The translations under genes were made by a program, and so were the position numbers. The notes below the pieces were generated by a model. It saw only the letters and a program-made list of their open reading frames with translations, was not told the DNA's origin and made no database searches. A DNA stretch of 64,000 nucleotides. Source: a virus. This document shows, one piece after another, positions 4,650 through 64,000 of this stretch. Numbering within the stretch: position 1 is the stretch's first letter; every line of letters starts with the position of its first letter. The stretch covers positions 120,089 to 184,088 of IMG/VR virus record IMGVR_UViG_3300027736_000020; one strand, written 5' to 3'.

Positions 4650-5068
4650 CATTTCAATCATTTATTGAAGAATGGGAAATAATGCTCCCTGATGGAACAA
4701 TTATACGCGACGAAATACAATATTCCTATGCGATGAGTCCAATAGGAGTTGAGATTGTTCCTCAAAAAAATCGCAGAATAATAACTAGTCCTGAAGGAGA
4801 AGAGGAATATGTTCCTGTTCCTGAGGATTATGAACAAAATCGCGTTGATCTTTGTGAGATTAATGATAAATGGAAAAAGCAAAATGAAAAATATTTTGAA
4901 AAACATGAACACAGAGAAAAGGATTATCTTGAATACAGCAAATGGATAAGTAATAATCTTAAAGATTCGTCTTTGACAAGTCTTTTGATGACATTTGCTC
5001 CAAAATCTTCAAGCGTTTCAGGAATTAGTGGATTATTGCTGCGTCACACACAGAAGGAACAAAAATGA
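4646..5068 (+). CDS. Hypothetical protein
   Basis: ORF coupled to neighbours by ATGA overlaps. Confidence 0.7.
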   Translation: MTFQSFIEEWEIMLPDGTIIRDEIQYSYAMSPIGVEIVPQKNRRIITSPEGEEEYVPVPEDYEQNRVDLCEINDKWKKQNEKYFEKHEHREKDYLEYSKWISNNLKDSSLTSLLMTFAPKSSSVSGISGLLLRHTQKEQK

Positions 5069-16745: not shown

Positions 16746-16821
16746 GCAAGGGTAGCTCAGTTGGTAGAGCTTCTGCCTTCCAAGCAGATTGTCGCGGGTT
16801 CGAGCCCCGTCCCTTGCTCCA
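16746..16821 (+). tRNA. tRNA-Gly(TCC)
   Basis: Acceptor GCAAGGG/CCCTTGC; anticodon loop CT-TCC-AA; TTCGAG T-loop; encoded CCA. Confidence 0.95.
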
Positions 16822-16822
16822 T

Positions 16823-16899
16823 GGCCTCGTAGCTCAGTGGACTAGAGCTCTCGCCTTCTAAGCGAGTGGTCGCAAGTTCGAATCTTGCCGGGGTCACCA
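16823..16899 (+). tRNA. tRNA-Arg(TCT)
   Basis: Cloverleaf; CTCGC/GCGAG stem around CT-TCT-AA; encoded CCA. Confidence 0.95.
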
Positions 16900-16927
16900 T
16901 TTTGGAAACGTCAAAGGAGGACAAAGA

Positions 16928-17005
16928 ATGCTGACTGGCGGATTTATGGTATTGTTATGTTTGTCGGTTTTTTTCCTTTGGTGGCTCGCCGCCGGGAAAA
17001 AATAA
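16928..17005 (+). CDS. 25-aa hydrophobic micro-protein
   Basis: AAGGAGG RBS; MLTGGFMVLLCLSVFFLWWLAAGKK. Confidence 0.45.
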   Translation: MLTGGFMVLLCLSVFFLWWLAAGKK

Positions 17006-17009
17006 GTAG

Positions 17010-17081
17010 TCCCTGATAGCTCAACGGTGGAGCGCTCGGCTGTTAACCGATAGGTTCGAGGTTCGAATCCTCGTCAGGGAG
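17010..17081 (+). tRNA. tRNA-Asn(GTT)
   Basis: Acceptor TCCCTGA/TCAGGGA; loop CT-GTT-AA; TTCGAAT; no encoded CCA. Confidence 0.93.
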
Positions 17082-17093
17082 CTAGGAGGAATC

Positions 17094-17180
17094 ATGTTGT
17101 TTTTCTTGTTGTTTTATGTTCTTCTGATGTACATATTGTTGACAGCTTGGCTTTTCAGGTCTGCAAGAGGAAAATATTGA
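17094..17180 (+). CDS. 28-aa hydrophobic micro-protein
   Basis: AGGAGG RBS; MLFFLLFYVLLMYILLTAWLFRSARGKY. Confidence 0.45.
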   Translation: MLFFLLFYVLLMYILLTAWLFRSARGKY

Positions 17181-17482
17181 AAATCTACGTTGCAAAATTC
17201 TGGGCGCAAAAACACAATGATCGTCGTTGGACTGACTGCGGATATCATTACTCGTTGACGCCTTGGTCGTATGACACAAACATTGATGAGATGCAAGAAG
17301 GGTGGATGATTGAACCCTTCCATTCGATTGATGTAGAGGAGAATGAAGTTGGAAACTATCACATCGAAGAAAGTAATGTTTCCGGAGAAGAAACCATCAT
17401 CAAGTCCGGTCGAGATCTCATTCTCCGGCTTGAGCAGCGACGTATTCAATCACATTATTCAGAACAGGTACGAAATTTTTGA
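17147..17482 (+). CDS. Hypothetical protein (start uncertain)
   Basis: ORF track; acidic C-terminal half. Confidence 0.4.
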   Translation: MAFQVCKRKILKIYVAKFWAQKHNDRRWTDCGYHYSLTPWSYDTNIDEMQEGWMIEPFHSIDVEENEVGNYHIEESNVSGEETIIKSGRDLILRLEQRRIQSHYSEQVRNF

Positions 17483-17626
17483 GAAATTCTTTTATGAGCA
17501 TAGACTTGCGCGATTCGAACGAATTGACTGGACGTATGCAGTAAAGGAAAAAATACTTGTGTTGAGGTTGTTTGAAGAAGTGCCCGGTGGCCTTACAACT
17601 GAAGCCCAAGACGTATAATTGAATAT

Positions 17627-17702
17627 GCCGCTGTAGCTCAGGGGTTAGAGTAGCTGTTTTGTAAACAGCGGGTCGTGGGTTCGAATCCCACTGGCGGCTC
17701 CA
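17627..17702 (+). tRNA. tRNA-Thr(TGT)
   Basis: Cloverleaf; GCTGT/ACAGC around TT-TGT-AA; encoded CCA. Confidence 0.95.
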
Positions 17703-17985
17703 TGAAAATAAAAGGATGCTAAAAGGTGTTTGTAACAATGGTGTATGAATCATGGACAGGATCGTGGTACATGTGGAGCAATGATGTCCCGCGGATGCGC
17801 ATGGATATCAATGAGGATCCGGATTTATTTCACATGGATATTACTGGAATCAAGAAGGTTTCCTGTCATGAGTGAAGAGCTACAGTATTTGCAATTTGGA
17901 ATTACTTTACTGAACACATTCATGTTAATGTCAGTATTTTACATGCTATACACCATAGGTATGAACAACAGGAGGGGACCAAGAA

Positions 17986-18615
17986 ATGGACACTGATCGG
18001 GAAATTGGTTTGCGATTCATGCTGTTGGGCAGCGCAGGATCGGGCAAAGACACCATGGCTAACCTGTTGATCAGGAAAATTGGCAATTGTCACATTCTTT
18101 CGTTTGCAGCTCCTGTCAAGCGCATGACAGGCAAGATGATTCGTTATATTTCCGATGATGAAAATCTTGGGCTTGTGCAAAAAATGGAGCAAATGACAGA
18201 TGTGCAATACAGGGAATTCATGCGTCATTTCTGGCAGTGGTTTGGAACGGAAGTTGGCCGCAAAACCATTGGAGAGGATTTCTGGATCAACAAACTCAGG
18301 GATTCCATCGAAGATATTGAGACGGCGTATCCACCAACTGATGGCATGATTCCTGCATTTGTTGTTACCGATTGCAGATTTGCCAATGAGCATCAATGGG
18401 GAATTGACAACGGATTTGTTATCGTGAGAATTTCCGGAGACTGGAGACAGTCAGGAGGCATTCCCAATCATTCAAGTGAAATTTCTCACATTACGCTTAA
18501 AGAGCATCTTTATTTCTCAAACAACGGTACAATAAAGGAAATGGAAAACTGGATTGATGAAGTTCTTGTTCCGTTTGCTCGTGAGTACAAAATAGTAAGG
18601 AAAAAAGATGCATGA
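17986..18615 (+). CDS. Deoxynucleoside monophosphate kinase
   Basis: P-loop GSAGSGKDT, SFAAPVK, QWFGTEVGR, VVTDCRFANE, HSSE. Confidence 0.88.
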   Translation: MDTDREIGLRFMLLGSAGSGKDTMANLLIRKIGNCHILSFAAPVKRMTGKMIRYISDDENLGLVQKMEQMTDVQYREFMRHFWQWFGTEVGRKTIGEDFWINKLRDSIEDIETAYPPTDGMIPAFVVTDCRFANEHQWGIDNGFVIVRISGDWRQSGGIPNHSSEISHITLKEHLYFSNNGTIKEMENWIDEVLVPFAREYKIVRKKDA

Positions 18616-18707
18616 TGATCAAGTTTCCGCCATATTCGGTGCAACAAGACTGCTTGTCTTCGCCCTGTCGCTCATCCTGCTAAGATTCTGGTGAAAGGAT
18701 TACGAAA

Positions 18708-18926
18708 ATGAATCAGGTTGTTGCTCCTCCTCCAGTCAAGCTTCCGGACATTGCCATCCCAGATTTGTACGACGACGATCCGTTGATTCCAACAGAAGAG
18801 GACGAGGAGTTGTTTGACTGGGATGAGGTTCTCAAGGGAATCCAATCAGATTTGGATGATGAGGAACCACAGGAAGTAGGTGCCGGGAGCGGGACTCGAA
18901 CCCGCACGGGGAATATCCCCTCCTGA
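18708..18926 (+). CDS. Small acidic hypothetical protein
   Basis: AAAGGA RBS; the 3' end overlaps the antisense tRNA-Leu. Confidence 0.45.
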   Translation: MNQVVAPPPVKLPDIAIPDLYDDDPLIPTEEDEELFDWDEVLKGIQSDLDDEEPQEVGAGSGTRTRTGNIPS

Positions 18927-18964
18927 TTTTAAGTCAGGTATGTCTGCCATTTCATCATCCCGGC
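18881..18964 (-). tRNA. tRNA-Leu(TAA)
   Basis: Reverse complement GCCGGGA...CCTGA-CTTAAAA-TCAGG, long variable arm, GGTTCGAGTCC. Confidence 0.93.
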
Positions 18965-18968
18965 TGGG

Positions 18969-19040
18969 CTGGGGCACTAGGATTCGAACCTAGGAATGCC
19001 GGATTCAAAGTCCGGAGCCTTACCACTTGGCGACACCCCA
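18969..19040 (-). tRNA. tRNA-Gln(TTG)
   Basis: Reverse complement TGGGGTGTCGCCAAGTGGTAAGG...CCGGA-CTTTGAA-TCCGG...GGTTCGAATCC. Confidence 0.93.
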
Positions 19041-19051
19041 TCGCTCACCAT

Positions 19052-19079
19052 ATGATACAGTATTCCTAGGAAAGGTCAA
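19052..19079 (-). promoter_or_regulatory. Sigma70-like promoter for the Gln-Leu tRNA pair
   Basis: TTGACC-16 nt-TATCAT on the minus strand, 11 nt upstream of tRNA-Gln. Confidence 0.55.
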
Positions 19080-19186
19080 TCATGAGCGAAGAACAGAAGA
19101 AATTGAGTCCCGGAGTTCCGTACCCCAAGCCCGAGAAAAAGGTCAAGAAGAACAAGGGCTTCAAGGGCAGCAAGGAAGGCAAGTAG

Positions 19187-19486
19187 ATGTATCTCAATGA
19201 GAATCTTCGAAAATTTTTTCATGGAGAAAAGGGAGCCATTGCGAACAAGATTCGCAATGAGCATCAGACAAAGGCAATCATCGTCCTTCCCATCAAGCCG
19301 CAGAAACGCATTCATTTCTTCCTGAAGACCAAGCGTGTCCTCGCTCAGCCCAAGTATGCGTTGCGTTTTCACAAGAACATGTCTTCCGAAGCTCGCGAGG
19401 TCGTTCTGAAGTACCTCAAGAAGTGGCGTTCAAAAGGAAGCGTTGAAACTTTCTCGACAATCGGGAATATCCTGAGAACATTTTAA
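19187..19486 (+). CDS. Basic hypothetical protein
   Basis: ORF track; K/R-rich. Confidence 0.6.
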   Translation: MYLNENLRKFFHGEKGAIANKIRNEHQTKAIIVLPIKPQKRIHFFLKTKRVLAQPKYALRFHKNMSSEAREVVLKYLKKWRSKGSVETFSTIGNILRTF

Positions 19487-19487
19487 C

Positions 19488-19910
19488 ATGAAAAGCTACA
19501 TTGACTTGTATGAATCTATTCATGAAGATGGTCATCTTGTCGGTGTAGCAAGAAACGAAGAGTTTTCAACGGGAACATTTTACCCTCAGTTGTACAAGCA
19601 TATCGAAAAGCTTGGAGAGGAACGTTCTTTCACGTTTGAGTCATTCGGATACCTTGTCTACGATTTTCCCGGATACAGCATCTTGGATCATCGTAAGGCA
19701 GGGCTTCCGGGTGAGTACGTTTCTCGCCCTGATAGGGATCCAAGTATGCTTCCGTTGGAATGGAGGCATTTGGCTGTTGCCAATCCCATGTTTTCCCACC
19801 GTGATCACTATTCTGGATTCATTCATCCCTCAGATAAATTGTTCATAAAAATATTGGAAAATCCACAATCTGCTGAAGGACATTATTTCATTTTTGGAGA
19901 AACCAGATAA
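19488..19910 (+). CDS. Hypothetical protein
   Basis: ORF track; adjacent to the upstream stop. Confidence 0.65.
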   Translation: MKSYIDLYESIHEDGHLVGVARNEEFSTGTFYPQLYKHIEKLGEERSFTFESFGYLVYDFPGYSILDHRKAGLPGEYVSRPDRDPSMLPLEWRHLAVANPMFSHRDHYSGFIHPSDKLFIKILENPQSAEGHYFIFGETR

Positions 19911-19937
19911 TTCTGGTACAGTAGATTCGTTCAGCAA

Positions 19938-20009
19938 GGTCCTGTGGCGCAATGGTAGCGCAAGAGACTTTTAATCTTTTGGTTGTGGGTTCGACTCCCA
20001 CTGGGACCA
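19938..20009 (+). tRNA. tRNA-Lys(TTT)
   Basis: Acceptor GGTCCTG/TGGGACC; loop CT-TTT-AA; TTCGACT. Confidence 0.92.
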
Positions 20010-20024
20010 CCGTAAGGATATGTC

Positions 20025-20276
20025 ATGATCGAGTTTTCCATCAAAAAGGTTGCATATAAACATAAGAAAAATACCAAAGCGGAAACAACGGTGTTGGCTT
20101 TGGACTTGACGGAAAAAGAGGTCGAGAAAATATTGGAAACGGTGGTTCCCGGAAATTCCAAAGAACTTAGGGAATCATTATTTGCTGCCATTTCCGAATC
20201 AATCTTTTCGCGTGCAGAAAAAGCCATTGGCGAAGAGATTGCCAATGGAGAAATCTGGATGCGTATTCGTGCCTGA
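20025..20276 (+). CDS. Hypothetical protein
   Basis: AAGGA RBS. Confidence 0.6.
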   Translation: MIEFSIKKVAYKHKKNTKAETTVLALDLTEKEVEKILETVVPGNSKELRESLFAAISESIFSRAEKAIGEEIANGEIWMRIRA

Positions 20277-20682
20277 CAAGGTTACGTGGAGAATTGGCGG
20301 ATTAAGATCCGCATCTGTTGGTTCTGCTTGGATTTCTTCAGAAGGACGAACAGGATTTTATCGTGGCAACCGCAAAATTGAAGAACCCAATCCTTTGAGC
20401 AAGGCATTCAGGCAATATTTTGCAGAAGGATTGAACGCTAAAGTTGATGCCGTTCCGGGTTCTTTTGACAATCATGATGATTTGATTGATCAGATAATTC
20501 AGCAATCTGACGCCATGACAGAAAATTGTCTGGTAACTTTTTTTGTTCCCGCAGAATTTTGGTGTCCCGTTCACTGGTTCTTGCTCGACTGCAGACATCG
20601 ACTGACTCCTCGCGAATCATGGCTCGTGGAGTCCAATGTCGATGCGCTTCGTCCGTCTGGTATGATCTTGACGGATGACTGA
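20182..20682 (+). CDS. Hypothetical protein (true start probably downstream)
   Basis: ORF track; overlaps the previous gene. Confidence 0.5.
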   Translation: MLPFPNQSFRVQKKPLAKRLPMEKSGCVFVPDKVTWRIGGLRSASVGSAWISSEGRTGFYRGNRKIEEPNPLSKAFRQYFAEGLNAKVDAVPGSFDNHDDLIDQIIQQSDAMTENCLVTFFVPAEFWCPVHWFLLDCRHRLTPRESWLVESNVDALRPSGMILTDD

Positions 20683-20690
20683 ATTCACGG

Positions 20691-20765
20691 CGGCCCGTAG
20701 CTCAGTGGTTAGAGCACGATCTTATAAATACGAGGTCATGGGTCCAATTCCCATCGGGCCTACCA
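20691..20765 (+). tRNA. Degenerate tRNA-Ile(TAT), possible pseudo-tRNA
   Basis: Cloverleaf with CCA; loop CT-TAT-AA; anticodon stem one base short (CGAT/ATACG); C1:T72 mismatch; T-loop TCCAATT. Confidence 0.65.
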
Positions 20766-20784
20766 TTCAGCAAAAAGGAATATT

Positions 20785-21063
20785 TTGATGCCAGCGATCA
20801 AAATTGAGAATATCATTTGGAGTGTCAACACAGAAGTCAGCGAAGAAGAGTATGCTACTTTCCCATTGGAGGCAATTGTTGACATACACGAGAGTTATTA
20901 TCTTCAAGAACCTATTGAGTCAATTATTCACAATGTCCTTGAAAGTTACACTAATATTCCAGCAAAAAGTTTTGATTTCAGTGTGGTCATGAGAAATGGT
21001 CCGGTACTAAAGTATTTCAAGAATCGTGAAAATACGCTGGCATTTTCCGGGCCGCTTTGGTAA
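20785..21063 (+). CDS. Hypothetical protein
   Basis: AAAGGA RBS. Confidence 0.6.
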   Translation: MMPAIKIENIIWSVNTEVSEEEYATFPLEAIVDIHESYYLQEPIESIIHNVLESYTNIPAKSFDFSVVMRNGPVLKYFKNRENTLAFSGPLW

Positions 21064-21071
21064 TAGTTTGC

Positions 21072-21144
21072 GGACCCATAGCTCAGCGGTTAGAGCATCT
21101 CTCTCATAAAGAGCAGGCCGCAGGTTCAAATCCTGCTGGGTCTA
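21072..21144 (+). tRNA. tRNA-Met or tRNA-Ile2 (CAT)
   Basis: Acceptor GGACCCA/TGGGTCT; loop CT-CAT-AA; TTCAAAT; lacks the initiator three G-C pairs. Confidence 0.88.
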
Positions 21145-54981: not shown

Positions 54982-55026
54982 CAACAAGGCACATGCGGGA
55001 GCATGTGCATCCCCGCGAAGCGCTGA
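54982..55026 (-). repeat. Conserved 45-bp leader element B, copy 1
   Basis: caacaagGCACATGC-ggga-GCATGTGCatccccGCGAAGCgctga on +; upstream of 54911. Confidence 0.9.
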
Positions 55027-55123
55027 CACAGGGAACAGGAGAAAACGCGCGGAATGCAGTCGGCAGCGGCACACTCCCGGGGTGGGCGGGGGATGGATGC
55101 ATTTCCTATCCCCCGCCGCGCAG

Positions 55124-55453
55124 TTATCCTGTCCTTGATTGTTCCAGCAGTGCTAGTGCTACGGTGTCGAAGTCTGTCATGGTAAACACATTGAGCAGTA
55201 GATTTTGCAGAAGCGGGTCGTCCATGTGTGTTACGTCGTCGCGTAGTTGCGATTCGATTTGTGCGCTTGTCCTGCTTATCTGATCGCTGATATTGTCGAA
55301 CATCATTGCGTCCTTGATGAGCATGCGACAGTATTCCGGATATCTCTTTTCAAGGTTGTACAGGATGGTTTTCTCGAACGTGGTGTTTGTTGTCTTGCCA
55401 ATCTTCTTGTTGCTGATCAGTTCGACCATCTCGTCACTTGTTATGCTTTTCAT
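55124..55453 (-). CDS. Hypothetical protein (family B)
   Basis: C-terminus FTMTDFDTVALALL. Confidence 0.6.
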   Translation of the reverse strand: MKSITSDEMVELISNKKIGKTTNTTFEKTILYNLEKRYPEYCRMLIKDAMMFDNISDQISRTSAQIESQLRDDVTHMDDPLLQNLLLNVFTMTDFDTVALALLEQSRTG

Positions 55454-55853
55454 AGTATTTCACGAGTTCCTTTGCGAGTGATTCCCACCCGATATTCTGG
55501 AATGCGCGTTCTGCCATGTTTGCCAATAGCATTTCGCGCTCAAGAAGCACTTTCTCATCTTGGTTGTCTGCTTCCAGTCGAGAGTTCTCGATGGATTCCG
55601 TGAATGGAACAACAATCCTTGTTGTTGCATACTTTGACAACTTTGATGACAGGTAATGCACCGTGTGATTGTTGTACTCTTGTGCGCTGGACGCGAAGTT
55701 GGTTGCTTCGCGTTGCGCTTCCTTGAACAACATCTTGATGTCATTCCTGATTGACTCTGCTGGCAGTGTCTTGTCGGTTGCGTACTTGTACAGGATTCTC
55801 GTCTCTCGTGTTGCATCCTTGATCGAATATTCGCGGTTCATTAGATACTCCAA
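55434..55853 (-). CDS. Hypothetical protein (family B)
   Basis: C-terminus AFQNIGWESLAKELV. Confidence 0.6.
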   Translation of the reverse strand: MEYLMNREYSIKDATRETRILYKYATDKTLPAESIRNDIKMLFKEAQREATNFASSAQEYNNHTVHYLSSKLSKYATTRIVVPFTESIENSRLEADNQDEKVLLEREMLLANMAERAFQNIGWESLAKELVKYYEKHNK

Positions 55854-56179
55854 GGGATTTCCTCTTCTCGCTCTCTTATTTTTTCCGTGATGATGGTTCC
55901 CATGTCAATCATGGTCAACACCATGGTCAGGCATTGTGCCGATATGTCGTTCATTGCCTTGATCTTGCCTTTGGTAAAATCTCCATTCTTGTCGTTTTCG
56001 GATTTGATGTCAACAAGGCGTTTTATTTCGACATCAAGGTTGTATGACATGGTAGTCAGCAAGTCGATTTGATGTGAGAGCACGTACCTCTCTAGATGAT
56101 CATCAAATGACGGATGATGCAGGTTTTTCTTGAGTTGCTTGAGCAGTTCTTCCTGAATGATTGCTTCAAGTTTTTCCAT
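55841..56179 (-). CDS. Hypothetical protein
   Basis: ORF track. Confidence 0.6.
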   Translation of the reverse strand: MEKLEAIIQEELLKQLKKNLHHPSFDDHLERYVLSHQIDLLTTMSYNLDVEIKRLVDIKSENDKNGDFTKGKIKAMNDISAQCLTMVLTMIDMGTIITEKIREREEEIPWSI

Positions 56180-56182
56180 GAT

Positions 56183-56437
56183 CTACTCTTGTGCATATTT
56201 GATGTCGTGCATCATGCTGCTGATCATGGTTGCACGCTTGTTTTTGTTCAGTCCGCAGATTGCAAAGTCAATGTACTGGATTGCTTCAGTGCGTGCAACA
56301 ACCCAATACTGTATTTCGGTTTCAGCAGGGACACTTGCGTAGGAGTCTCCATCCACAAGTGCCTTGCCTGAGAAACGTTTGCTTTCCAGTTCATCGGCAA
56401 GTGCCTCCATGCACTTGCCGTAGAACCATTGATTCAT
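56183..56437 (-). CDS. Hypothetical protein
   Basis: Start moved to MNQWFYG. Confidence 0.5.
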   Translation of the reverse strand: MNQWFYGKCMEALADELESKRFSGKALVDGDSYASVPAETEIQYWVVARTEAIQYIDFAICGLNKNKRATMISSMMHDIKYAQE

Positions 56438-56457
56438 GAGTGTTCGTGTTGCGAACT

Positions 56458-56898
56458 TCACTTTGCAAGCCTTTTTTGTCTGTATGTCATGGATCGCCTT
56501 TTGGAGGCAAAATCGATGATTTTCAGTTTTGGAGTATTCATGACATAGTTCAGGATTTCGTCGAGTTCTTCGAAGTTTGCGTAGGTGTGAATGCCGTACC
56601 CATCGTGTCCCGGCACTTGATACCATTCGTCATTGGTGTTGTGCTTGACTCCGACTTCGAAGTCCTTGCTTGTCCACGGCAGGCTTCCGTTCTCGCTTAC
56701 AAATGGTTTGATGTAGTGCTCACAATAGTTTGCGCCGCCAAAGACAATAGATACCTTGATCTTTTTGTCCGTGAAAATGATTGCAAACCCTCGATTGCTC
56801 TTGTAGAGCACGAACTCCACGTTTTCTGGTTTGGTGTCGTAAAGGCGTTTTGCAATGCCTTCCAGTTTGAGCGTTTTGTCTGTGTTGATGCCGATCAT
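56458..56898 (-). CDS. Hypothetical protein
   Basis: Start moved to MIGINT (AAAGGA RBS). Confidence 0.6.
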   Translation of the reverse strand: MIGINTDKTLKLEGIAKRLYDTKPENVEFVLYKSNRGFAIIFTDKKIKVSIVFGGANYCEHYIKPFVSENGSLPWTSKDFEVGVKHNTNDEWYQVPGHDGYGIHTYANFEELDEILNYVMNTPKLKIIDFASKRRSMTYRQKRLAK

Positions 56899-56923
56899 TG
56901 TTGTTCCTTTGTTGTTGTGTGAC

Positions 56924-56949
56924 AGTTTTGTGGAGATCTGCCAACTCCG
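56924..56949 (-). repeat. 26-bp intergenic motif C, copy 1 (others at 57987-58012, 59790-59815, 60090-60115)
   Basis: agttttg(t/a/g)ggagatct(g/t)ccaactccg on +; each copy 4-8 nt from a minus-strand stop codon. Confidence 0.85.
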
Positions 56950-56953
56950 GTGC

Positions 56954-57328
56954 TTAGTCGAGTGGATTCGGTATTCCCTTTTCCTTTCCGCTATCCTGAT
57001 ACCACAGGGCAAACTTTTCCAGAGATTCTTCCTGTTCTTCGTTGAGTTCAACGACGATTGAAGCAACACTTTTCTTTTTGTCAAAGTATTGCTCAAGGTA
57101 CTCGGGCAGGTTCATTGCCCATGTGCGAAGCAACCTGTAATACGGTGCCTGATCCTGCCAGTTGGTGACATTCCACTGTTTTGTGGTTTGCCACTCTCCG
57201 TCCTTGATTTCATCCTGACGGATGATGATCAAGTCCACTGCTGGCCGACCTTCAAGGTCGATGGTTTGGTATGCCGTGAACGCAACGTTTGGCCTTGCGG
57301 TGTTTTTTGGCGACGGTATCAGATACAT
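56954..57328 (-). CDS. Hypothetical protein
   Basis: ORF track. Confidence 0.6.
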   Translation of the reverse strand: MYLIPSPKNTARPNVAFTAYQTIDLEGRPAVDLIIIRQDEIKDGEWQTTKQWNVTNWQDQAPYYRLLRTWAMNLPEYLEQYFDKKKSVASIVVELNEEQEESLEKFALWYQDSGKEKGIPNPLD

Positions 57329-57675
57329 TATCGTGGCCTTTCCAGCAGTTTTGTGGCAGTTAGTTCTGCCATTTCGGTGTCGAAGACAAACTCTGCATCG
57401 ATTGGATGTTCCGAATCGGGCAGAAGAAGTGCATTCCTTGGAGTTATTTGATACAACGACGATGCGGGATGTGCATAGAACAGATACATCCTGTTGTCCA
57501 GATACAACGAAAAATGTCCGCTTACTTGCCCAACATGCGTTGTCTTGTACAGCCTTTGCGTTTTTGGCGTACGCGTATTCTGAAGATGCGCGGCTGCGAG
57601 ATCAGAGGAATGATTGATCATTTTCTTGAACAATGCGTTTGCGATCTCGTCTTTTTCGTGATCTTCCAGAAACAT
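57328..57675 (-). CDS. Hypothetical protein
   Basis: Start moved to MFLEDH (AAAGGA RBS). Confidence 0.6.
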   Translation of the reverse strand: MFLEDHEKDEIANALFKKMINHSSDLAAAHLQNTRTPKTQRLYKTTHVGQVSGHFSLYLDNRMYLFYAHPASSLYQITPRNALLLPDSEHPIDAEFVFDTEMAELTATKLLERPR

Positions 57676-57698
57676 GTTTTTTCCTTTTTGTGATACAA

Positions 57699-57973
57699 GC
57701 AATCCCCTGTCGCCTGTGCTGTCAAGCGTGATCTTCTTTGAATAAAGAAGATCCGGGCATCAACCATCCTCGCGGATGTCCGCCGCGTTGCTTGCTATCT
57801 CGCTTGTTTCGATACTTTCCCGTTAGGGTAAACAGCGTGTGGGATGCCTCTCAGCGGCCACACTGTTATTTATGTATCGTTGGATACCATGCACCACGAA
57901 CTAGTTTCGTGTCCCATGCACATGGTTTATAATCCCAAGTCCGATATGGGCAGCACAGGCGACAGTCGATTGC
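57699..57973 (-). ncRNA. Candidate structured ncRNA E1 (class unknown)
   Basis: 15-bp perfect closing stem 57707-57721/57951-57965, extended by GCAATC/GATTGC; internal hairpins including CATCC-GCGA-GGATG and GATCTTCTTT/AAAGAAGATC. Confidence 0.6.
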
Positions 57974-58018
57974 CTGTGTGGTTGGCAGTTTTGAGGAGAT
58001 CTGCCAACTCCGTGCAGT

Positions 58019-58381
58019 TTAGAACTGTTCTACGGTTTCTTCTTTCTTTTCGAACACCTTGGTGCACACTGGACACGTTTCTCCAGCGTCGCTATTGTAG
58101 TACTTGACGCTTGCTGACACGAGCGTCTCTAGCGTGGAGACAAGATCACCCATCTTGTGCAACTCTGCCAACTTGGAGTCAGTCGATGTCATTGCCTCGC
58201 GCATGCGCGAGACGCGCTCGTCGCGTTCCTGCCACGTCGCGTTTTCCTTCTCCGTTTCGAGCAACTTGTAGTTGCGTTCGTTGGAGATTCCGATGATCTG
58301 ACGCTCATACAGTTGCTTGAGCACCTGTATCGCTTGCTGAAGTGTCTTCAGGCTGCTGTCCGGGATGTATTGTTGGTACAT
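58019..58381 (-). CDS. Coiled-coil protein with C-terminal CPVC
   Basis: GGAGG RBS. Confidence 0.65.
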   Translation of the reverse strand: MYQQYIPDSSLKTLQQAIQVLKQLYERQIIGISNERNYKLLETEKENATWQERDERVSRMREAMTSTDSKLAELHKMGDLVSTLETLVSASVKYYNSDAGETCPVCTKVFEKKEETVEQF

Positions 58382-58441
58382 TGTAGCCTCCGCGTAAGTG
58401 TGTGACGGTTTTTGTGAGGGTTCACCGACAACCCTTTGCGA

Positions 58442-59029
58442 TCACATCTGTGTGTCGCAGGTGTAGAAGATTCGGTAGCCTTCCCCTACCGCTTGTTTTG
58501 CCAGTTCCATGGCCGCGAGGTCTTCGTTGACCATTCGATACGACTTTTCCCAGAAATGCGATTCGCTTTCCCGCTGCAAATCCATTGCAACTTCTGTGGC
58601 GATTTCTTCCAAGTCGAACTGATTTAGTTCTACCCAAGTTACAAGCATATGCTTGTTATTCGGGTTGTAGAACTTGGATTTCTGGTAGATTTCGATCATC
58701 TTGCCTTGGATGTTACCGTGATTCAACCATCCGTACAAGATCTGGTACCCGAAACTTGGGTACTCGCCACCAGATGGCAGCGGTGTTTCCCATTTGCTGA
58801 TCGGTGCTCCGGGTGGCACTGCTACCAAGTAGCCGCGGATTTCCTTGTCGTCCCATTCTGCCTTTTCGACAAGATACTTGATCTCGTCTGGCGTGGAGAA
58901 TCCGCGTCGGAGGTTTCCATACGCCTTGTTCGTTTCGTAGTAGTCACGTATGATTTCTGCTTCAATGCGCATGTTTTCGTCTTCGTCTTTGATGCGCCAA
59001 TGTTCCGTGTGACTGCCAAATCCGCTCAT
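58442..59029 (-). CDS. Hypothetical protein, distantly like 49206..49580
   Basis: Start moved to MSGFGSH (AAAGGA); GWLNHGNIQG...YRIFYTCD. Confidence 0.6.
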   Translation of the reverse strand: MSGFGSHTEHWRIKDEDENMRIEAEIIRDYYETNKAYGNLRRGFSTPDEIKYLVEKAEWDDKEIRGYLVAVPPGAPISKWETPLPSGGEYPSFGYQILYGWLNHGNIQGKMIEIYQKSKFYNPNNKHMLVTWVELNQFDLEEIATEVAMDLQRESESHFWEKSYRMVNEDLAAMELAKQAVGEGYRIFYTCDTQM

Positions 59030-59090
59030 TTTTGTTCCTTTGGGAGGAAGCAACCCAGCGGAGTAGGGGGTTCTCCGCTGGGTTCTGATG

Positions 59091-59336
59091 TCAGTCCTTG
59101 TAGACCGACTTGATGATGACTGGAGCCGCTTTCCTTTCGGTTTTGCTCTTCCAGTATTCGATTTGCTCTTGCAGTTCGATTTCTCGCAGTCGGGCTTGTG
59201 ACGCAGCGGCGTCCATTTCTCGGCGGAGTTGTTCCTTGCTAAGGATATCTCCATCCAAGTCCTTGTGAAGCCCGCGGATGACTGCGTGGCACGTCTTGAT
59301 GTCATCCGGGAGATAGATTGGCGCGATGATTTTCAT
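59091..59336 (-). CDS. Small coiled-coil hypothetical protein
   Basis: Start moved to MKIIAP (AAAGGA). Confidence 0.55.
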   Translation of the reverse strand: MKIIAPIYLPDDIKTCHAVIRGLHKDLDGDILSKEQLRREMDAAASQARLREIELQEQIEYWKSKTERKAAPVIIKSVYKD

Positions 59337-59354
59337 TATGTGTGTTCCTTTGCG

Positions 59355-59790
59355 CTTGTGTTCGCCCATCACCCTTTCGGGCGCAGGCGACTGGTTCTTA
59401 TCATCCTTTCAGGCTGTATTGGGTGGGAGTTTTAGCCCCGGAGACTCCCGCGCCTTCTTGCGAACAAGACGACTAACTCCGTCGCTAGCCAAGCGATTTG
59501 GGCCTTGTGGAGGTTTTCAAGCCCGGAGATCCTCCGACCTTCCTCGCTTTGGCAGTTGCCAACACTGGAAGATTCTACTCCGCCATGGCTAGTGGCTGCG
59601 CACAGATGCACGCAGGGCTGTCAAGAGACCATCTGCCGACGCCAGCAACGCGCGGGGTCTTGCACCACCCCCGGACAGGTATTTCCTGCCGGTGCCCTCG
59701 TTGCTACTGCGCTCTGGCTGTCACCCACCACACGCTGCACGTACCGGTTTACCGGGGCACAGGTGGTGTGGCTGCAGATGGTCTCAGGAA
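59355..59790 (-). ncRNA. Candidate large structured ncRNA E2 (class unknown)
   Basis: 12-bp perfect stem 59625-59636/59774-59785; GNRA-capped hairpins on the minus strand (CGCCC-GAAA-GGGTG, TTC-GCAA-GAA); two hairpins with near-identical loops. Confidence 0.6.
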
Positions 59791-59818
59791 GTTTTGGGGA
59801 GATCTTCCAACTCCGAGT

Positions 59819-60055
59819 TCAGTCTACCAGTTCGAACTCTAGGCCTCCCATGCCTAGTTTCGTCAACTCGTCCGAGACAAGTTCCGACAACTCATCGTAG
59901 GCTACATCCTGTGCCCAGCCTTCAAGCAGCGGGACGTTTATCAGGTAGTTGGGAACCTGAATGTCCAAGGATTTTGGGATCGGTTGTCCCGTCCTCCCGG
60001 AGGCTTCTTCGGCTTCCACCGAATCGGCGAACCGCATTTTCACCGTGATGATCAT
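59819..60055 (-). CDS. Small acidic hypothetical protein
   Basis: ORF track; AAAGGA upstream. Confidence 0.6.
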   Translation of the reverse strand: MIITVKMRFADSVEAEEASGRTGQPIPKSLDIQVPNYLINVPLLEGWAQDVAYDELSELVSDELTKLGMGGLEFELVD

Positions 60056-60120
60056 GTCTTTTTTTTATTCCTTTTTCGGTGTGTGTGGAAGTTTTGGGGA
60101 GATCTTCCAACTCCGTGCGT

Positions 60121-60546
60121 TTACTTGGTGGCTAGGTATTCCTCATATACCTTTACAGCCAGCCTTGCGAGGTATTCGACATCGATTCGAGCAAAAGGCC
60201 CACTGAAGTCAATGAGCCCCTTTTCAAATGATTCGAATGGATTTCTCTTGAGATTCTGGTGCATTTCCTCGTGGACGAAGTCGATGTACGATCCCAGTTC
60301 GTATTCGAAGAGATTGTACAGGTCTTCGCCTTCCTCGCTGCGGACTATTCCCCAGAACATCTCGAAGTTCATGAGATTATTCGGGGTATCGCAGGAGTTT
60401 GGGCAACTCTCCCACGTGTACTGCGTCTCCCAGTTGGGAAATGCAGCCACGAACTGCCTGTCAGGCTCCACCATGTCTGGTGCAACCTTTACAAATAAAC
60501 TGGTGAGAAGTATGTGTGCCGCGTCGTTGGAGATGTCCATCGCCAT
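60121..60546 (-). CDS. Acidic hypothetical protein (family B-like C-terminus)
   Basis: FARIDVEYLARLAV. Confidence 0.6.
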   Translation of the reverse strand: MAMDISNDAAHILLTSLFVKVAPDMVEPDRQFVAAFPNWETQYTWESCPNSCDTPNNLMNFEMFWGIVRSEEGEDLYNLFEYELGSYIDFVHEEMHQNLKRNPFESFEKGLIDFSGPFARIDVEYLARLAVKVYEEYLATK

Positions 60547-60620
60547 TTTATTCGTCCTTATGTTGTGTCGGTTTTTAGGGTTGACCGAAAACCTTGTCAG
60601 GGGTACCGGGTTAGGTGTGT

Positions 60621-60884
60621 TTAGTCGCTTAGCATCGCTGATTCTTCAATCAGCACTGTGCGGTTAGACGGGTCGATGCTCACAAACTTCGGACGCTGTC
60701 CAACGCGGAATCCTGATGCGTGGTTGCCACGGTGGCCGGATGCCATTGCTTCGACTTCCGCCTCGATGGCATTTTTGGCGGAAGTCAAGTCGACCCCGTC
60801 GCTGATTTTGAAGGAGACGTGCCAAACGTCCCTCCACGCCTCGGCTCGGTACGACAGAACTACGCGCGTATTCCAGTCAATCAT
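60621..60884 (-). CDS. Small hypothetical protein
   Basis: Start moved to MIDWNT. Confidence 0.55.
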   Translation of the reverse strand: MIDWNTRVVLSYRAEAWRDVWHVSFKISDGVDLTSAKNAIEAEVEAMASGHRGNHASGFRVGQRPKFVSIDPSNRTVLIEESAMLSD

Positions 60885-60924
60885 TGGTTTTCTTTCTTGT
60901 TTGTTGCGCCGCATGTTTGATTAT

Positions 60925-61148
60925 CGCTAGCCCTGCAACTCTTGATCCTGATCCTCGCGGAGTCAGGGAGTTTGCAGGACATCGCGAAAGCAGTTTCGTC
61001 AGAACAAGATCAACTGTTGATCTTATATCCCATACCTCGCGGATTTGGGAAGATCATCAGTCACGATTTTGTCCTCTAGCGGCCTTCTGCTGCGTCAATG
61101 GCCCTAGGGCCGCCCGGAGCCCCCTCTTTCAAGGAGACTCCGGGCTGT
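60925..61148 (-). ncRNA. Candidate structured ncRNA E3 (class unknown)
   Basis: Two TCC-GCGA-GG hairpins; AAGATCAA-CAG-TTGATCTT; ATCGTGA/TCGCGAT; CGCTAG/CTAGCG; GAAA-capped GCCCGGAG hairpin. Confidence 0.5.
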
Positions 61149-61151
61149 GGG

Positions 61152-61592
61152 TCAGGCGACTTCTTCCTGATTGTTCAGGATCGCCTGTTCGAGATTGCGA
61201 TCAGTCTGTTCGACTTTCTCGCTGTTCTCGGGAGCCAGTCTCCAGTTGATCAACCCCTTTGAAGAACGCTGAACCACTTGGAAGTTCTCGCGGATTTTTG
61301 CAAGGATAGCGAGTTGTCCCCGGTAGAACGCTCTCTCTTCCGGTGCGGTGGCCCTCTTCAGAGCCCCGGAGGCTGCGTTCTCGGCGTCTCGGTATTCGAG
61401 ATACAACTGCTTCACGTGCTTGCTCATGATCGGCAAGATGTCCCTGCCAATCTCCCCCTCGGGAGAGAAATACACGGGAAGTGTCATGTACGTGAACCCC
61501 TTGGTTCGTGTCCACGACGCTGCCTTGGTTTCGCCGCTGTTGCCGTTGTCCGCTTCTGGCTCGAATGCTGCCGTGAGGGCCGTGCTGGCCAT
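61152..61592 (-). CDS. Hypothetical protein
   Basis: Start moved to MASTAL (AAAGGA). Confidence 0.6.
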   Translation of the reverse strand: MASTALTAAFEPEADNGNSGETKAASWTRTKGFTYMTLPVYFSPEGEIGRDILPIMSKHVKQLYLEYRDAENAASGALKRATAPEERAFYRGQLAILAKIRENFQVVQRSSKGLINWRLAPENSEKVEQTDRNLEQAILNNQEEVA

Positions 61593-61660
61593 GCTCGTGT
61601 CCTTTCGTGACACTGTGGGCTTGTTCGCCCGGTTTTAGGGAGGCTTTCACCTCCAATCCC

Positions 61661-61705
61661 CAACAAGGCACATGCGGGAGCATGTGCATCCCCGCGAAGC
61701 GGTGA
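61661..61705 (-). repeat. Leader element B, copy 2
   Basis: Same core as copy 1; followed on the minus strand by GGAGGTGA. Confidence 0.9.
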
Positions 61706-61747
61706 TTCAGGAAACAGAAGAAGAGAGAGAGAAAAAAACAGGAGCGC

Positions 61748-61789
61748 TCAGCACCCCGGGGAGGTGAAGGGGATTCCCCGGGGTGTTGA
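61748..61789. terminator. GC-rich hairpin after 61801..62118
   Basis: TCAGCACCCCGGGGA...TCCCCGGGGTGTTGA; T-rich tract further downstream on the minus strand. Confidence 0.55.
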
Positions 61790-61800
61790 TGGGATGGAAA

Positions 61801-62118
61801 CTATTCGACTTCGACTTCGATAAGATCTGCCGTGTAATAACACCCTGAATAGTCGAGCCAGCACCGAAGTGCCTGCTCATGGGTGGTGGGCATGTGCCCG
61901 AAGTTGATATCCGCTACGCCGAACACCTGCACATACTCGCGCAGGTTCCCCTCTTCGATGAACTGCTGAAAGATGAATGACCTCTCCGAGGCCGTCAGGT
62001 TGGGAACTTCGAACTCCACGTTGACGTAGTAGTTGGTGGCCTTCGGGGCAAGCCCCGTTTTCACATACAGTGTTTCGGCAAGTGCGAGTGAGGGATTGAG
62101 GGTGATCTTCAGCAACAT
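61801..62118 (-). CDS. Hypothetical protein
   Basis: Start moved to MLLKIT (GGAGG RBS). Confidence 0.65.
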   Translation of the reverse strand: MLLKITLNPSLALAETLYVKTGLAPKATNYYVNVEFEVPNLTASERSFIFQQFIEEGNLREYVQVFGVADINFGHMPTTHEQALRCWLDYSGCYYTADLIEVEVE

Positions 62119-62176
62119 TGTAGCCTCCGTGTAAGTGTGTGCCGGTTTTTTGGGTTGACCGGAAACCCCCGCGCGT

Positions 62177-62374
62177 TTACCCCCCGCGGTTGGGGCGGGC
62201 TGCCACCGCATTGCTGCGGCTCATTGGAGCCCGAAGATACCACCAATCCTGTGGTGGTGCAGGGGGCATTGCCGTGCCCCGGGTCTGTTCGCAACGCAGG
62301 CGGTTGGCGGCCGCCCGTTCGGCTTCCCGCCGACGGAGTTGACGGTGTAGGGAAAAAAGAGCCTCACTACCCAT
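62177..62374 (-). CDS. Small Arg/Ala-rich ORF following element B copy 3
   Basis: GGAGGTGA RBS; MGSEALF. Confidence 0.4.
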   Translation of the reverse strand: MGSEALFSLHRQLRRREAERAAANRLRCEQTRGTAMPPAPPQDWWYLRAPMSRSNAVAARPNRGG

Positions 62375-62393
62375 GTGACTCACCTCCACACCC

Positions 62394-62438
62394 CAACAAG
62401 GCACATGCGGGAGCATGTGCATCCCCGCGAAGCGGTGA
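62394..62438 (-). repeat. Leader element B, copy 3
   Basis: Same core. Confidence 0.9.
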
Positions 62439-62597
62439 TTCAAAGGATCGGGGAAAACGATGTGATGATCAGGAAACGCACCTACAGATTCGACAAAAAC
62501 GCGCGAAAAAAGAAGAAATGCTAGGAAAAGAAAGAGAAGAAAGAGAAACCATGACAGGAACGCACCAGTACCCATGGTGGTAACGGGGATCCCCCAC

Positions 62598-62897
62598 GGT
62601 GGTAACGGGGATTAAGAGACTGGGGCGGTTGCGATGGTGTGGGGGAAGTGCGTGCTCGCTCCGTGATTGTGACGTAGCATTGATCGATCAGGAACGAGAT
62701 GGTGCTATGGCTTCATCACATTGATCTTGAAGAACGCACAGAGGGGGTCAGGGGGCGAAGCCCCGTTGCAGGTGGTTTGGAGGACGGAGTCCTCCAATAA
62801 GATGGGGCTACGAGCGCAGCGAGTAGCATCCATCGTGGGATTAGGGCAAACGGAAAAAAGAGTCACCCGACGCCCCTCTTTCGAGGAACGCCGGGTG
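62598..62897. repeat. ~300-bp direct repeat block A, copy 1
   Basis: Near-identical to 63318-63614 and the start of 63950-64000. Confidence 0.95.
62854..62897 (-). terminator. Intrinsic terminator in block A
   Basis: CACCCGGCGTTCCTC-GAAA-GAGGGGCGTCGGGTG then ACTCTTTTTT on the minus strand. Confidence 0.85.
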
Positions 62898-62905
62898 TGA
62901 AAACG

Positions 62906-63199
62906 TCAGACGTAGTGCTTCGCAAGCGAGGCTTTCTGCGCGTTTTCAAATTTCGCAGAAAGTTCTTTGACGATGGCCATCGCCAATCCGAACCTAGAGT
63001 CGGCTACTGCCAATTCTAGGGCGTGCCGTGCCACAACGGCGGCCCGAGCGGCCCGTGCCGCCTCCATTCCCGCAATCGCCTCATCCCGAGCGGCCCGTGC
63101 CGCGAGCCTCTCGGGGTCGTTCGTGAAATTAGCCTTTCGGACGGCGTCCGCGGCCGTCCCTACTTGCTCTTCCCAGAGCAAACGATCATTTCGTGACAT
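62906..63199 (-). CDS. Cassette ORF 1, Ala-rich helical hypothetical protein
   Basis: GGAGGTGA RBS; MSRNDRLLW. Confidence 0.7.
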   Translation of the reverse strand: MSRNDRLLWEEQVGTAADAVRKANFTNDPERLAARAARDEAIAGMEAARAARAAVVARHALELAVADSRFGLAMAIVKELSAKFENAQKASLAKHYV

Positions 63200-63217
63200 G
63201 TTGTCACCTCCACACCC

Positions 63218-63262
63218 CAACAAGGCACATGCGGGAGCATGTGCGTCCCCGCGAAGCGCTGA
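63218..63262 (-). repeat. Leader element B, copy 4
   Basis: Part of a ~115-bp block near-identical to 63834-63949. Confidence 0.95.
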
Positions 63263-63317
63263 TCCAGCAAGACGGGGAAAACGCATCATGTTGACACGTG
63301 TCCGCGATGCCCCCCAA

Positions 63318-63614
63318 GGTGGTAACGGGGATTAAGAGACTGGGGCGGTTGCGATGGTGTGGGGGAAGTGCGTGCTCGCTCCGTGATTGTGACGTAACGA
63401 TGATCGATCAGGAACGAGATGGTGATATGGCTTCAGTGCGTTGATCTTGAAGAACGCGAGTAGGGGGTCAGGGGGCGAAGCCCCGCTGCAGGTGGTTTGG
63501 AGGACGGAGTCCTCCAATAAGATGGGGCTACGAGCGCAGCGAGTAGCATCCATCGGGATTAGGGTAAACGAAAAAAGAGTCACCCGACGCCCCTCTTTCG
63601 AGGAACGCCGGGTG
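63318..63614. repeat. ~300-bp direct repeat block A, copy 2
   Basis: See copy 1; terminator at 63571-63614. Confidence 0.95.
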
Positions 63615-63623
63615 ACGGTGCGG

Positions 63624-63833
63624 TTACTGAATGAGATCGAGAGACCAGTCCCCGCCCTCATGGGCGAGTGCGAGAATAAGTGCGTCGCGCGTCTTTTCGA
63701 CGTTGACGCGGGCGTCAACCCGCGCCCTGACGGAAATCGCGTTGTCCCGGCTTGCCGAGTCCTGCTGGGCATTCAAGATGGCCCGCAAAGTTGCCTTGGC
63801 TTCCCTGAACTGCTTCAGTTTTTCATGTGACAT
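63624..63833 (-). CDS. Cassette ORF 2, small helical hypothetical protein
   Basis: GGAGGTGA RBS; MSHEKLKQF. Confidence 0.7.
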   Translation of the reverse strand: MSHEKLKQFREAKATLRAILNAQQDSASRDNAISVRARVDARVNVEKTRDALILALAHEGGDWSLDLIQ

Positions 63834-63850
63834 GTGTCACCTCCACACCC

Positions 63851-63895
63851 CAACAAGGCACATGCGGGAGCATGTGCGTCCCCGCGAAGCGGTGA
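63851..63895 (-). repeat. Leader element B, copy 5
   Basis: Same core. Confidence 0.95.
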
Positions 63896-63949
63896 TCCAG
63901 CAAGACGGGGAAAACGCATCATGTTGACACGTGTCCGCGATGCCCCCAA

Positions 63950-64000
63950 GGTGGTAACGGGGATTAAGAGACTTGGGTGGTTGCGCTGGTGTGGGGGAAG
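63950..64000. repeat. Block A, copy 3 (truncated by the window end)
   Basis: ggtggtaacggggattaagagact...ggtgtgggggaag. Confidence 0.85.

Follow-up and report, generated by a model that had tools for sequence, protein, structure and literature searches.

On the minus strand of the window, the 64,000-nucleotide stretch of viral DNA analysed here, a gap of 483 nt designated E2 extends from the stop codon of a 78-amino-acid (aa) open reading frame (ORF; 59819) to the start codon of an 81-aa ORF (59336). An IMG/VR virus contig of 184,088 bp, with a completeness rating of 97%, contains the window as its final 64 kb. A preliminary description of the sequence had read about 435 nt of this gap as a single ornate RNA of the GOLLD and ROOL kind. 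Comparison with related loci showed instead that E2 consists of three separate parts and is not one RNA unit: a 28-nt pseudoknot (motif C), which recurs behind other genes, a 163-nt insert, and a conserved 288-nt element.

Composite make-up of E2

Homologues of the flanking proteins P0004 and P0001, 66-92% identical, occur in freshwater metagenomes. The contigs fetched through them, together with five loci from a 20-nt pattern scan of Joint Genome Institute (JGI) metagenomes, served as the relatives for all comparisons and are denoted by L numbers. In every relative, homology to the window ran through motif C to 59787 and resumed at 59623. The empty site reads ...AAAACUUCC-AC-UGACAGCC..., and the window carries 163 nt in place of the AC; the site was occupied only by the dinucleotide AC or AA in 14 distinct relatives. 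The insert was missing in L003, L005-L012, L016, L022-L025 and L028-L032, and was present only in the window phage and in L021, a contig identical to the window. Even near-identical strains differ in it, as seen for the window and L022, which share 99% identity in the adjacent element. The insert is closed by a perfect 12-bp stem, GAGACCATCTGC/GCAGATGGTCTC, formed by 59774-59785 with 59625-59636. This stem and the others listed in the preliminary description (GTGCCC/GGGCAC, AGCAACG/CGTTGCT, GGCAGG/CCTGTC and CTAGCCA/TGGCTAG) were all found on the minus strand where it had placed them.

Fold energies were compared with those of shuffled sequences. The whole gap gave z-scores of -3.17 on the minus strand and -1.64 on the plus strand, the 163-nt 5' part -4.15 and -3.10, and the 288-nt 3' part -1.56 and -1.35, respectively. 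The fold excess of the whole gap stems mostly from the 5' part, and thermodynamics alone backs only this part. The minus-strand excess of the whole gap and the lack of an Rfam match would both suit a new class of large, ornate noncoding RNA, GOLLD- or ROOL-like and spanning all 435 nt as one molecule. Such an RNA is most improbable, being already contradicted by the empty sites: its 5' 163 nt were missing from 14 distinct relatives with an intact 3' part, which leaves a conserved part of 288 nt. In addition, minimum-free-energy and consensus folds contained no helix joining the insert to the 3' part, and the insert is closed on itself.

The origin of the insert was considered as well. Its perfect 12-bp inverted ends, its presence or absence between near-identical strains, and the existence of a second hairpin-closed insert (E1) directly after another motif C copy could point to a miniature mobile element resembling a miniature inverted-repeat transposable element (MITE) that landed beside motif C. 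Its ends show no target-site duplication, however, when the empty site CTTCC-AC-TGACAG is compared with the filled site CTTCC-T[..]T-TGACAG. Moreover, the insert is single-copy in the genome and has no copy elsewhere in any fetched locus, and a two-end scan of 185,579 species genomes and IMG/VR returned only one unrelated AT-rich Lachnospiraceae palindrome. A MITE-like origin is unlikely. The insert, with which the relatives dispense, may be a passenger, tolerated because the 2-nt linker in which it sits separates two modules that fold independently.

The insertion turns CCACTGACAG into CTCTTGACAG (window 59621-59628) and so creates a perfect TTGACA hexamer. A sigma-70 promoter starting from this hexamer at the insert junction was rejected, since no -10 element was found at 16-18 nt. 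E1 (57691-57983, minus strand) is a 293-nt hairpin-closed insertion directly after the motif C copy at 57984-58011, with a fold z-score of -8.09. It occurred at 99% identity in L022 and L025 and was missing in L003, L004, L007 and L008; its empty site reads ...CUGCC-CU-CAAAAAGGAAAAACAUG.

The 288-nt element, in contrast to the insert, was retained at 87.5-99% identity in 14 other distinct sequences. The four flanking genes were 67-94% identical in the same loci, and the element was better conserved than they were in most loci. Three gene contexts were observed downstream of it, namely the 81-aa ORF in most loci, the 78-aa ORF in L023 and the P0004 homologue in L016 and L024. Stop codons were present in all sense frames of the element, and the one long antisense frame across it was broken by 1-2-nt indels in relatives. 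Its 73 variable sites were distributed 25/25/23 over the three frame positions, and its indels measured 1-4 nt. The element is therefore noncoding, without a conserved reading frame, in agreement with the preliminary reading of an intergenic RNA. The covariance model R1 identified one element copy in this genome and, over all loci, no divergent extra copies (short 7-21-bit matches were disregarded).

Database searches placed E2 outside known families, again as had been proposed. Rfam 15, including GOLLD, ROOL, PreQ1, transfer-messenger RNA (tmRNA) and ribozymes, returned no match in 59000-60200 even at E<=10, and only tRNAs were detected in the whole window at the gathering score. Neither E2 nor the 14 kb around it matched cultured phages by BLAST. 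The 288-nt element had no match against plasmids, and motif C had a single 30-nt chance match only against cultured phages. In IMG/VR, nothing matched motif C, the leader palindrome or either of two element patterns, and protein-based scans with P0001 and P0004 were equally negative.

A pseudoknot with compensatory change in both stems

A genome-wide scan for a 5-bp stem enclosing (A)UCUCC...AAAA identified six minus-strand copies within 3.2 kb of the region; elsewhere, only two unrelated AT-rich sequences matched the loose pattern. Four of the six are 28-nt motif C copies. The remaining two are the twin hairpins of E2, which lie at 59509-59535 and 59425-59449 and have the loops AUCUCCGGGCUUGAAAA and UCUCCGGGGCUAAAA. 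The preliminary view of the twin loops as a meaningful feature was well founded, as they belong to two elaborated motif C pseudoknots. None of 100 shuffles contained a match to the 28-mer at <=3 mismatches.

The 17 distinct motif C variants align as GGAG-UU-GGCAG-AU-CUCC-NNAAAA-CUGCC and are 99.3% paired under the structure [[[[..(((((..]]]]......))))). The first stem (S1) covaries, changing from G-C to A-U in L017 and L019, and the second stem (S2) contains two covarying pairs (G-C/G-U/A-U and C-G/A-U). Loop 1 (UU) and the AAAA that ends loop 3 never change, and the U of loop 2 hardly does. Loop lengths of 2 nt (loop 1), 1-2 nt (loop 2) and 6 nt (loop 3) in all 17 variants are compatible with coaxial stacking, which was taken to require at least 1 nt in loop 1 to span 5 bp and at least 3 nt in loop 3 to span 4 bp. 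Motif C, together with unit 2 of the 288-nt element described below, is an H-type RNA pseudoknot with the crossing order S1a-S2a-S1b-S2b and compensatory change in both stems.

The position of motif C follows a strict rule. Each of the 60 copies in distinct contexts is preceded, at a distance of 4-8 nt (5 or 7 nt being the commonest spacings), by the in-frame stop codon of an ORF of at least 40 codons, and these upstream genes belong to several different families. A start codon follows within 10-39 nt in 44 of the 60 copies, via a CA-rich leader and an AAGGA-type Shine-Dalgarno sequence, and 16 copies lead into structured RNA, either E1 or the 288-nt element in its full or half-length form. 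The distance from motif C to the next start codon ranges from 10 to more than 400 nt. Such tight stop spacing combined with loose start spacing argues against a promoter and points toward translation termination or the 3' end of the upstream cistron. A scan of 55000-64000 identified no sigma-70 promoter or intrinsic terminator within E2 or at motif C.

For the 288-nt element, a model of 11 helices, two of them pseudoknot stems, was tested on 15 sequences, comprising 62 pairs and 866 cells. Pairing was retained in 98.7% of the cells, and 10 pairs had changed on both sides. None of 500 column shuffles equalled the model, and at most 1 two-sided pair remained when the partners were slid by 1-3 columns. 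Homologues and covariation, the check suggested by the preliminary description, bear out a conserved structure for the 3' element. The order of parts is hairpin P1, pseudoknot unit 1, hairpin P3, pseudoknot unit 2, a small GAAA hairpin, the terminal hairpin P6 and a CA-rich leader with a Shine-Dalgarno sequence (Table 1). Units 1 and 2 share the part order of motif C; an additional hairpin stands behind their GGAG-U, and their loop 3 is longer (GGGCUUGAAAA in unit 1 and GGGGCUAAAA in unit 2). The core of the element is two enlarged motif C pseudoknots, each with a loop-1 hairpin, flanked by ordinary hairpins.

Unit 2 provides the clearest linked changes. One of its S1 pairs was G-C/A-U in 7 against 7 sequences, and so was one of its S2 pairs. 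The eight sequences with GAGAG instead of GGGAG as the 5' strand of S2 also carried CUCUC as the 3' strand, UCUCU instead of UCUCC in the loop, and CAGAG instead of CGGAG upstream. These four changes are explained only by the pairing of GGAG with CUCC (S1) and of GRGAG with CUCYC (S2), and RNAalifold independently drew the S1 stem of this unit. Both stems of P2 covaried (U-A to C-G, C-G to U-A, and U-G to C-G or U-A), and the P1 loop was 3-4 nt longer in L031 and L032. The GGGCU of unit 1 loop 3 can pair with an RGCCC just downstream, with 100% compatibility; the alternative pairing of RGCCC with unit 2 loop 3 was 97% compatible. P6 has no U-tract behind it, and no terminator was called there.

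Two details of the preliminary description had to be revised. Its long-range CTAGCCA/TGGCTAG stem showed no covariation, was broken in 6 cells from two lineages, and clashes with P3, whose covarying UCGCU/AGCGA stem is better supported. Concerning its tetraloops, GAAA was confirmed, as CCC-GAAA-GGG never varies among the 15 sequences and L009 and L010 carry GAAA in place of the UUCG loop of another hairpin, whereas the proposed GCAA was not, the loop of UUGGC/GCCAA being AACU.

A half-copy of the element, containing P3, unit 2 and P6 with unit 1 deleted, was located at L023:2670-2941 on the same contig, behind its own motif C, indicating that the units are separable modules. In L016, a 74-aa GerE/LuxR-type helix-turn-helix gene (4459-4683) lies directly upstream of motif C and the element.

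Table 1 Features in and around E2 (window coordinates)
Feature	Position	Strand	Details
78-aa ORF P0002	59819..60055	-	upstream of E2; without known family
81-aa ORF P0003	59091..59336	-	downstream of E2; without known family; ATG 59334-59336
Shine-Dalgarno AAAGGAA of the 81-aa ORF	59345..59351	-	same leader type at other operon genes
Motif C copy	60087..60114	-	between 141-aa and 78-aa ORFs, 6 nt after TAA; CA-rich leader and start codon directly next
Motif C copy	59787..59814	-	GGAG-UU-GGAAG-AU-CUCC-CCAAAA-CUUCC; S1 GGAG:CUCC, S2 GGAAG:CUUCC; 4 nt after TGA of the 78-aa ORF
Motif C copy	57984..58011	-	GGCAG/CUGCC; E1 insertion (57691-57983) next
Motif C copy	56921..56948	-	GGCAG/CUGUC, one G-U pair
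Strain-specific 163-nt insert (5' domain)	59624..59786	-	three-way junction (predicted); 64% G+C
Conserved structured noncoding element (3' domain)	59337..59623	-	aligned as 59336-59623; 15-sequence alignment
P1 hairpin	59596..59615	-	CUGCGUGC-AUCU-GUGCGCAG; G-C to A-U in L016/L024
Pseudoknot unit 1	59509..59581	-	S1a GGAG 59578-59581; S1b CUCC 59525-59528
Unit 1 S2	59531-59535 with 59509-59513	-	GGAGG/CCUCC; invariant
P2 branched hairpin	59537-59573	-	within loop 1 of unit 1; covaries
P3 hairpin	59482..59496	-	UCGCU-UGGCU-AGCGA; two pairs changed on both sides
Pseudoknot unit 2	59425..59480	-	S1a RGAG 59477-59480; S1b CUCY 59440-59443
Unit 2 S2	59445-59449 with 59425-59429	-	GRGAG/CUCYC; covaries
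P4 hairpin	59457-59468	-	within loop 1 of unit 2; G-C to A-U; loops UUCG/GAAA/CCU
P6 terminal hairpin	59362..59390	-	invariant GAAA tetraloop; 12 pairs, one two-sided and two one-sided changes

The right-hand ~7 kb of the window is populated by small minus-strand ORFs without a family match and has a G+C content of 53-58%, compared with about 40% elsewhere. After the 81-aa ORF, the minus strand contains at 59045-59080 a G+C-rich hairpin of 10 bp (CCCAGCGGAG...CUCCGCUGGG) with UUGCUU behind it, so that this gene boundary carries a structure other than motif C. In a further region, E3 (60920-61150), the two ends (about 74 nt and 53 nt) were kept at 94-98% in relatives; its middle was variable in several loci and showed 86-92% identity throughout elsewhere. 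At the contig ends (genome 1-349 compared with window 63200-64000), the first 163 nt matched the last 162 nt at 97.5%, and more repeat copies were present. The contig is probably broken inside an array of ~630-720-bp cassettes, and its 'linear' status may therefore be an assembly artefact. A cluster of nine tRNA genes occupies 16746-21144 of the window.

Strand, molecule and described analogues

The pairs proposed in the element comprised 78 G-U cells compared with 4 A-C cells, and those in motif C 2 compared with 1. All motif C copies are found on the gene-sense strand. The G-U excess and the sense-strand copies suggest an RNA made with the genes, and argue for a structure acting as RNA on the minus, gene-sense strand, in keeping with the RNA-type structure that the preliminary description had read on this strand. 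Motif C and the element could alternatively act as DNA, in the form of recombination or cassette-exchange sites like the PeSLs of T4-type phages, AGATCT-centred operators, or promoters of a phage RNA polymerase. Three indels (the E2 insert, E1 and the 288-nt element) do start precisely where motif C ends on its 3' side, strains differ in a mosaic fashion across the region, and an inversion of P1 in some relatives is neutral at the DNA level. A function as DNA is nevertheless decidedly unlikely, considering the strong asymmetry between G-U and A-C cells, the covariation that keeps pairing in a pseudoknot topology impossible for duplex DNA, a stop and start spacing that is the opposite of a promoter's, and the mosaic breakpoints that also lie inside genes.

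Among phage RNA structures, the gene 32 operator of T4 and T2 has a small coaxial pseudoknot of two stems, behind which an A-rich leader without structure carries the ribosome binding site (PMC3014915). The E2 region likewise shows a knot, an unstructured leader and a Shine-Dalgarno sequence, a likeness in architecture alone. Autoregulation of gene 32 relies on one knot, to which the gene's own product binds, whereas motif C is repeated behind nearly all genes, always 4-8 nt from the stop codon before it, and has no sequence similarity to that knot and no Rfam match. The gene 32 pseudoknot with its leader appears to be the nearest described counterpart in mechanism; membership seems to fail on the defining features.

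In genome organisation, the closest resemblance is to the PeSL cassettes of T4-type phages, short conserved intergenic sequences between the small variable ORFs of the hyperplastic early region that are located at the boundaries of strain indels (PMC2839356, PMC4122927). PeSLs are sigma-70 promoters and terminator hairpins acting on transcription and DNA recombination, neither of which is present in motif C, whose conservation pattern is that of an RNA pseudoknot. In a boundary test modelled on PeSLs, the three insertions started at the motif C 3' edge without a second bounding copy, and mosaic patches were also present inside genes. The PeSL cassette is the nearest analogue in organisation, and here too membership fails on the defining features.

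Repeated structures just after stop codons in polycistronic mRNAs also include the repetitive extragenic palindromic (REP) hairpins of E. coli operons and the RNase III sites between T7 genes. These are long simple hairpins, whereas motif C is a 9-bp pseudoknot with invariant loops and is too short for RNase III; in the E2 region only the 12-bp insert stem comes near an RNase III substrate. The preQ1-I aptamers and luteovirus frameshift stimulators, of about 28-34 nt, may be likened to motif C in their order S1-L1-S2-L2-S1'-L3-S2', short loop 1 and A-rich loop 3 by a G/C-rich S1, and frameshift stimulators stand 5-9 nt from the decoding site, near the stop spacing of motif C. Motif C differs from both in its many copies per operon, its location after stop codons and not slippery sites, and the absence of a PreQ1 Rfam match at E<=10 and of any identified ligand-pocket residues. 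A riboswitch was dropped on account of the many copies and the lack of an Rfam match.

ToxI antitoxin RNAs of type III toxin-antitoxin systems are short pseudoknot repeats with A-rich tracts and are mimicked by phages. The motif C repeats, however, are not tandem (only the two units of the element are adjacent), have no ToxN-like gene nearby and show no sequence similarity to ToxI. GOLLD and ROOL resemble the element in being phage-borne, noncoding and structured, but they are stand-alone RNAs of 500-800 nt, whereas the conserved unit here measures 288 nt, is modular and mRNA-embedded, and matches neither model. A GGAG cleavage site of the T4 RegB type was dropped, as GGAG changes to AGAG together with its partner and pairing rather than sequence is kept. 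An integron attC-like site was dropped because no matching box was found. To our knowledge, no bacterial or phage operon has been described in which pseudoknots follow the stop codons throughout at a fixed distance of a few nucleotides.

Possible role at cistron boundaries

The composite E2 appears to lie between cistrons of a polycistronic and presumably early mRNA read from the minus strand of the window, and we consider it somewhat more probable than not that the motif C knots serve there as cis-acting boundary structures. The pseudoknots would be compact folds, probably triplex-stabilised, in which the A-rich loop 3 would occupy the groove of S1, and they would exert their effect in cis where one cistron meets the next. 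On terminating 4-8 nt before the knot, a ribosome would melt S1, and the knot would refold once the ribosome had gone. The folded knot could then be a mechanical or exonuclease roadblock, or a docking site for one shared RNA-binding factor, and in either case would determine how stable the neighbouring cistrons are or how they are translated. Ahead of selected genes, a double, reinforced version of the motif C signal would be provided by the 288-nt element, whose end supplies a normal CA-rich leader and Shine-Dalgarno sequence for whichever gene comes next.

Several points weigh against this account. Transcription, processing and the RNA ends are all read from gene orientation. The 288-nt element alone folds no better than shuffles, covariation being its support instead, and the relatives are close (at least 87% identical) and belong to few clades, so that the covariation represents few independent events. 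No variation occurs in S1 or S2 of unit 1, and their assignment therefore follows the analogy of motif C and unit 2. In L009-L012 (4414-4433), the 20-nt P1 hairpin is present as its exact reverse complement, and two G-U pairs become A-C mismatches; this inversion of a near-palindrome is neutral for DNA and not for RNA, and points away from RNA. The insert is represented by one sequence with a predicted fold. No trans-acting factor was identified among nine neighbouring ORFs, for which Pfam and PHROGs returned no significant match, and the AlphaFold model of P0004 (predicted local distance difference test, pLDDT, 61.6) had nothing at E<=0.001 in a Foldseek search of the PDB.

A different function for the 288-nt element is conceivable, if rather doubtful, in which it would be cut from the operon transcript to become a stable, trans-acting small RNA serving as a decoy or sponge for a protein or nuclease that ordinarily encounters motif C on the mRNAs, to which it would present the motif C fold in two high-affinity copies. 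The preliminary description had suggested a protein sponge or an oligomerising RNA, and a decoy would be its sponge idea confined to the conserved part. Its two elaborated copies of the gene-boundary pseudoknot, its independence of any one downstream gene, its higher conservation than that of its neighbours and the half-copy present as a separate cassette in L023 would all be in accord with a decoy. Conversely, the element has no promoter or terminator of its own and lies inside a polycistronic unit, it always ends in the working leader and Shine-Dalgarno sequence of the next gene, and one copy is present per genome. As a bolder and tentative extension of the cis-acting proposal, motif C and its doubled form might constitute a new class of termination-coupled RNA signal. 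A triplex pseudoknot would be opened by the terminating ribosome, and its refolding or a recruited factor would decide on passage of the ribosome or mRNA segment to the next cistron, which might result in reinitiation, in decay of the mRNA segment or in its being shielded from a host nuclease; alternatively, the 288-nt element might act as a pseudoknot decoy against a host RNA-targeting defence.

The picture of a giant ornate phage RNA is hence replaced by a testable one, a small pseudoknot module with covariation in both stems. Motif C forms a punctuation after almost every early gene in a group of uncultivated freshwater phages and is doubled in the 288-nt RNA. The region also offers a clean natural example of structured RNA modules that have been inserted, halved and inverted without disturbing their neighbours. 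If the knots control ribosome hand-over, the stability of mRNA segments or the evasion of defence, they would represent a compact new regulatory part.

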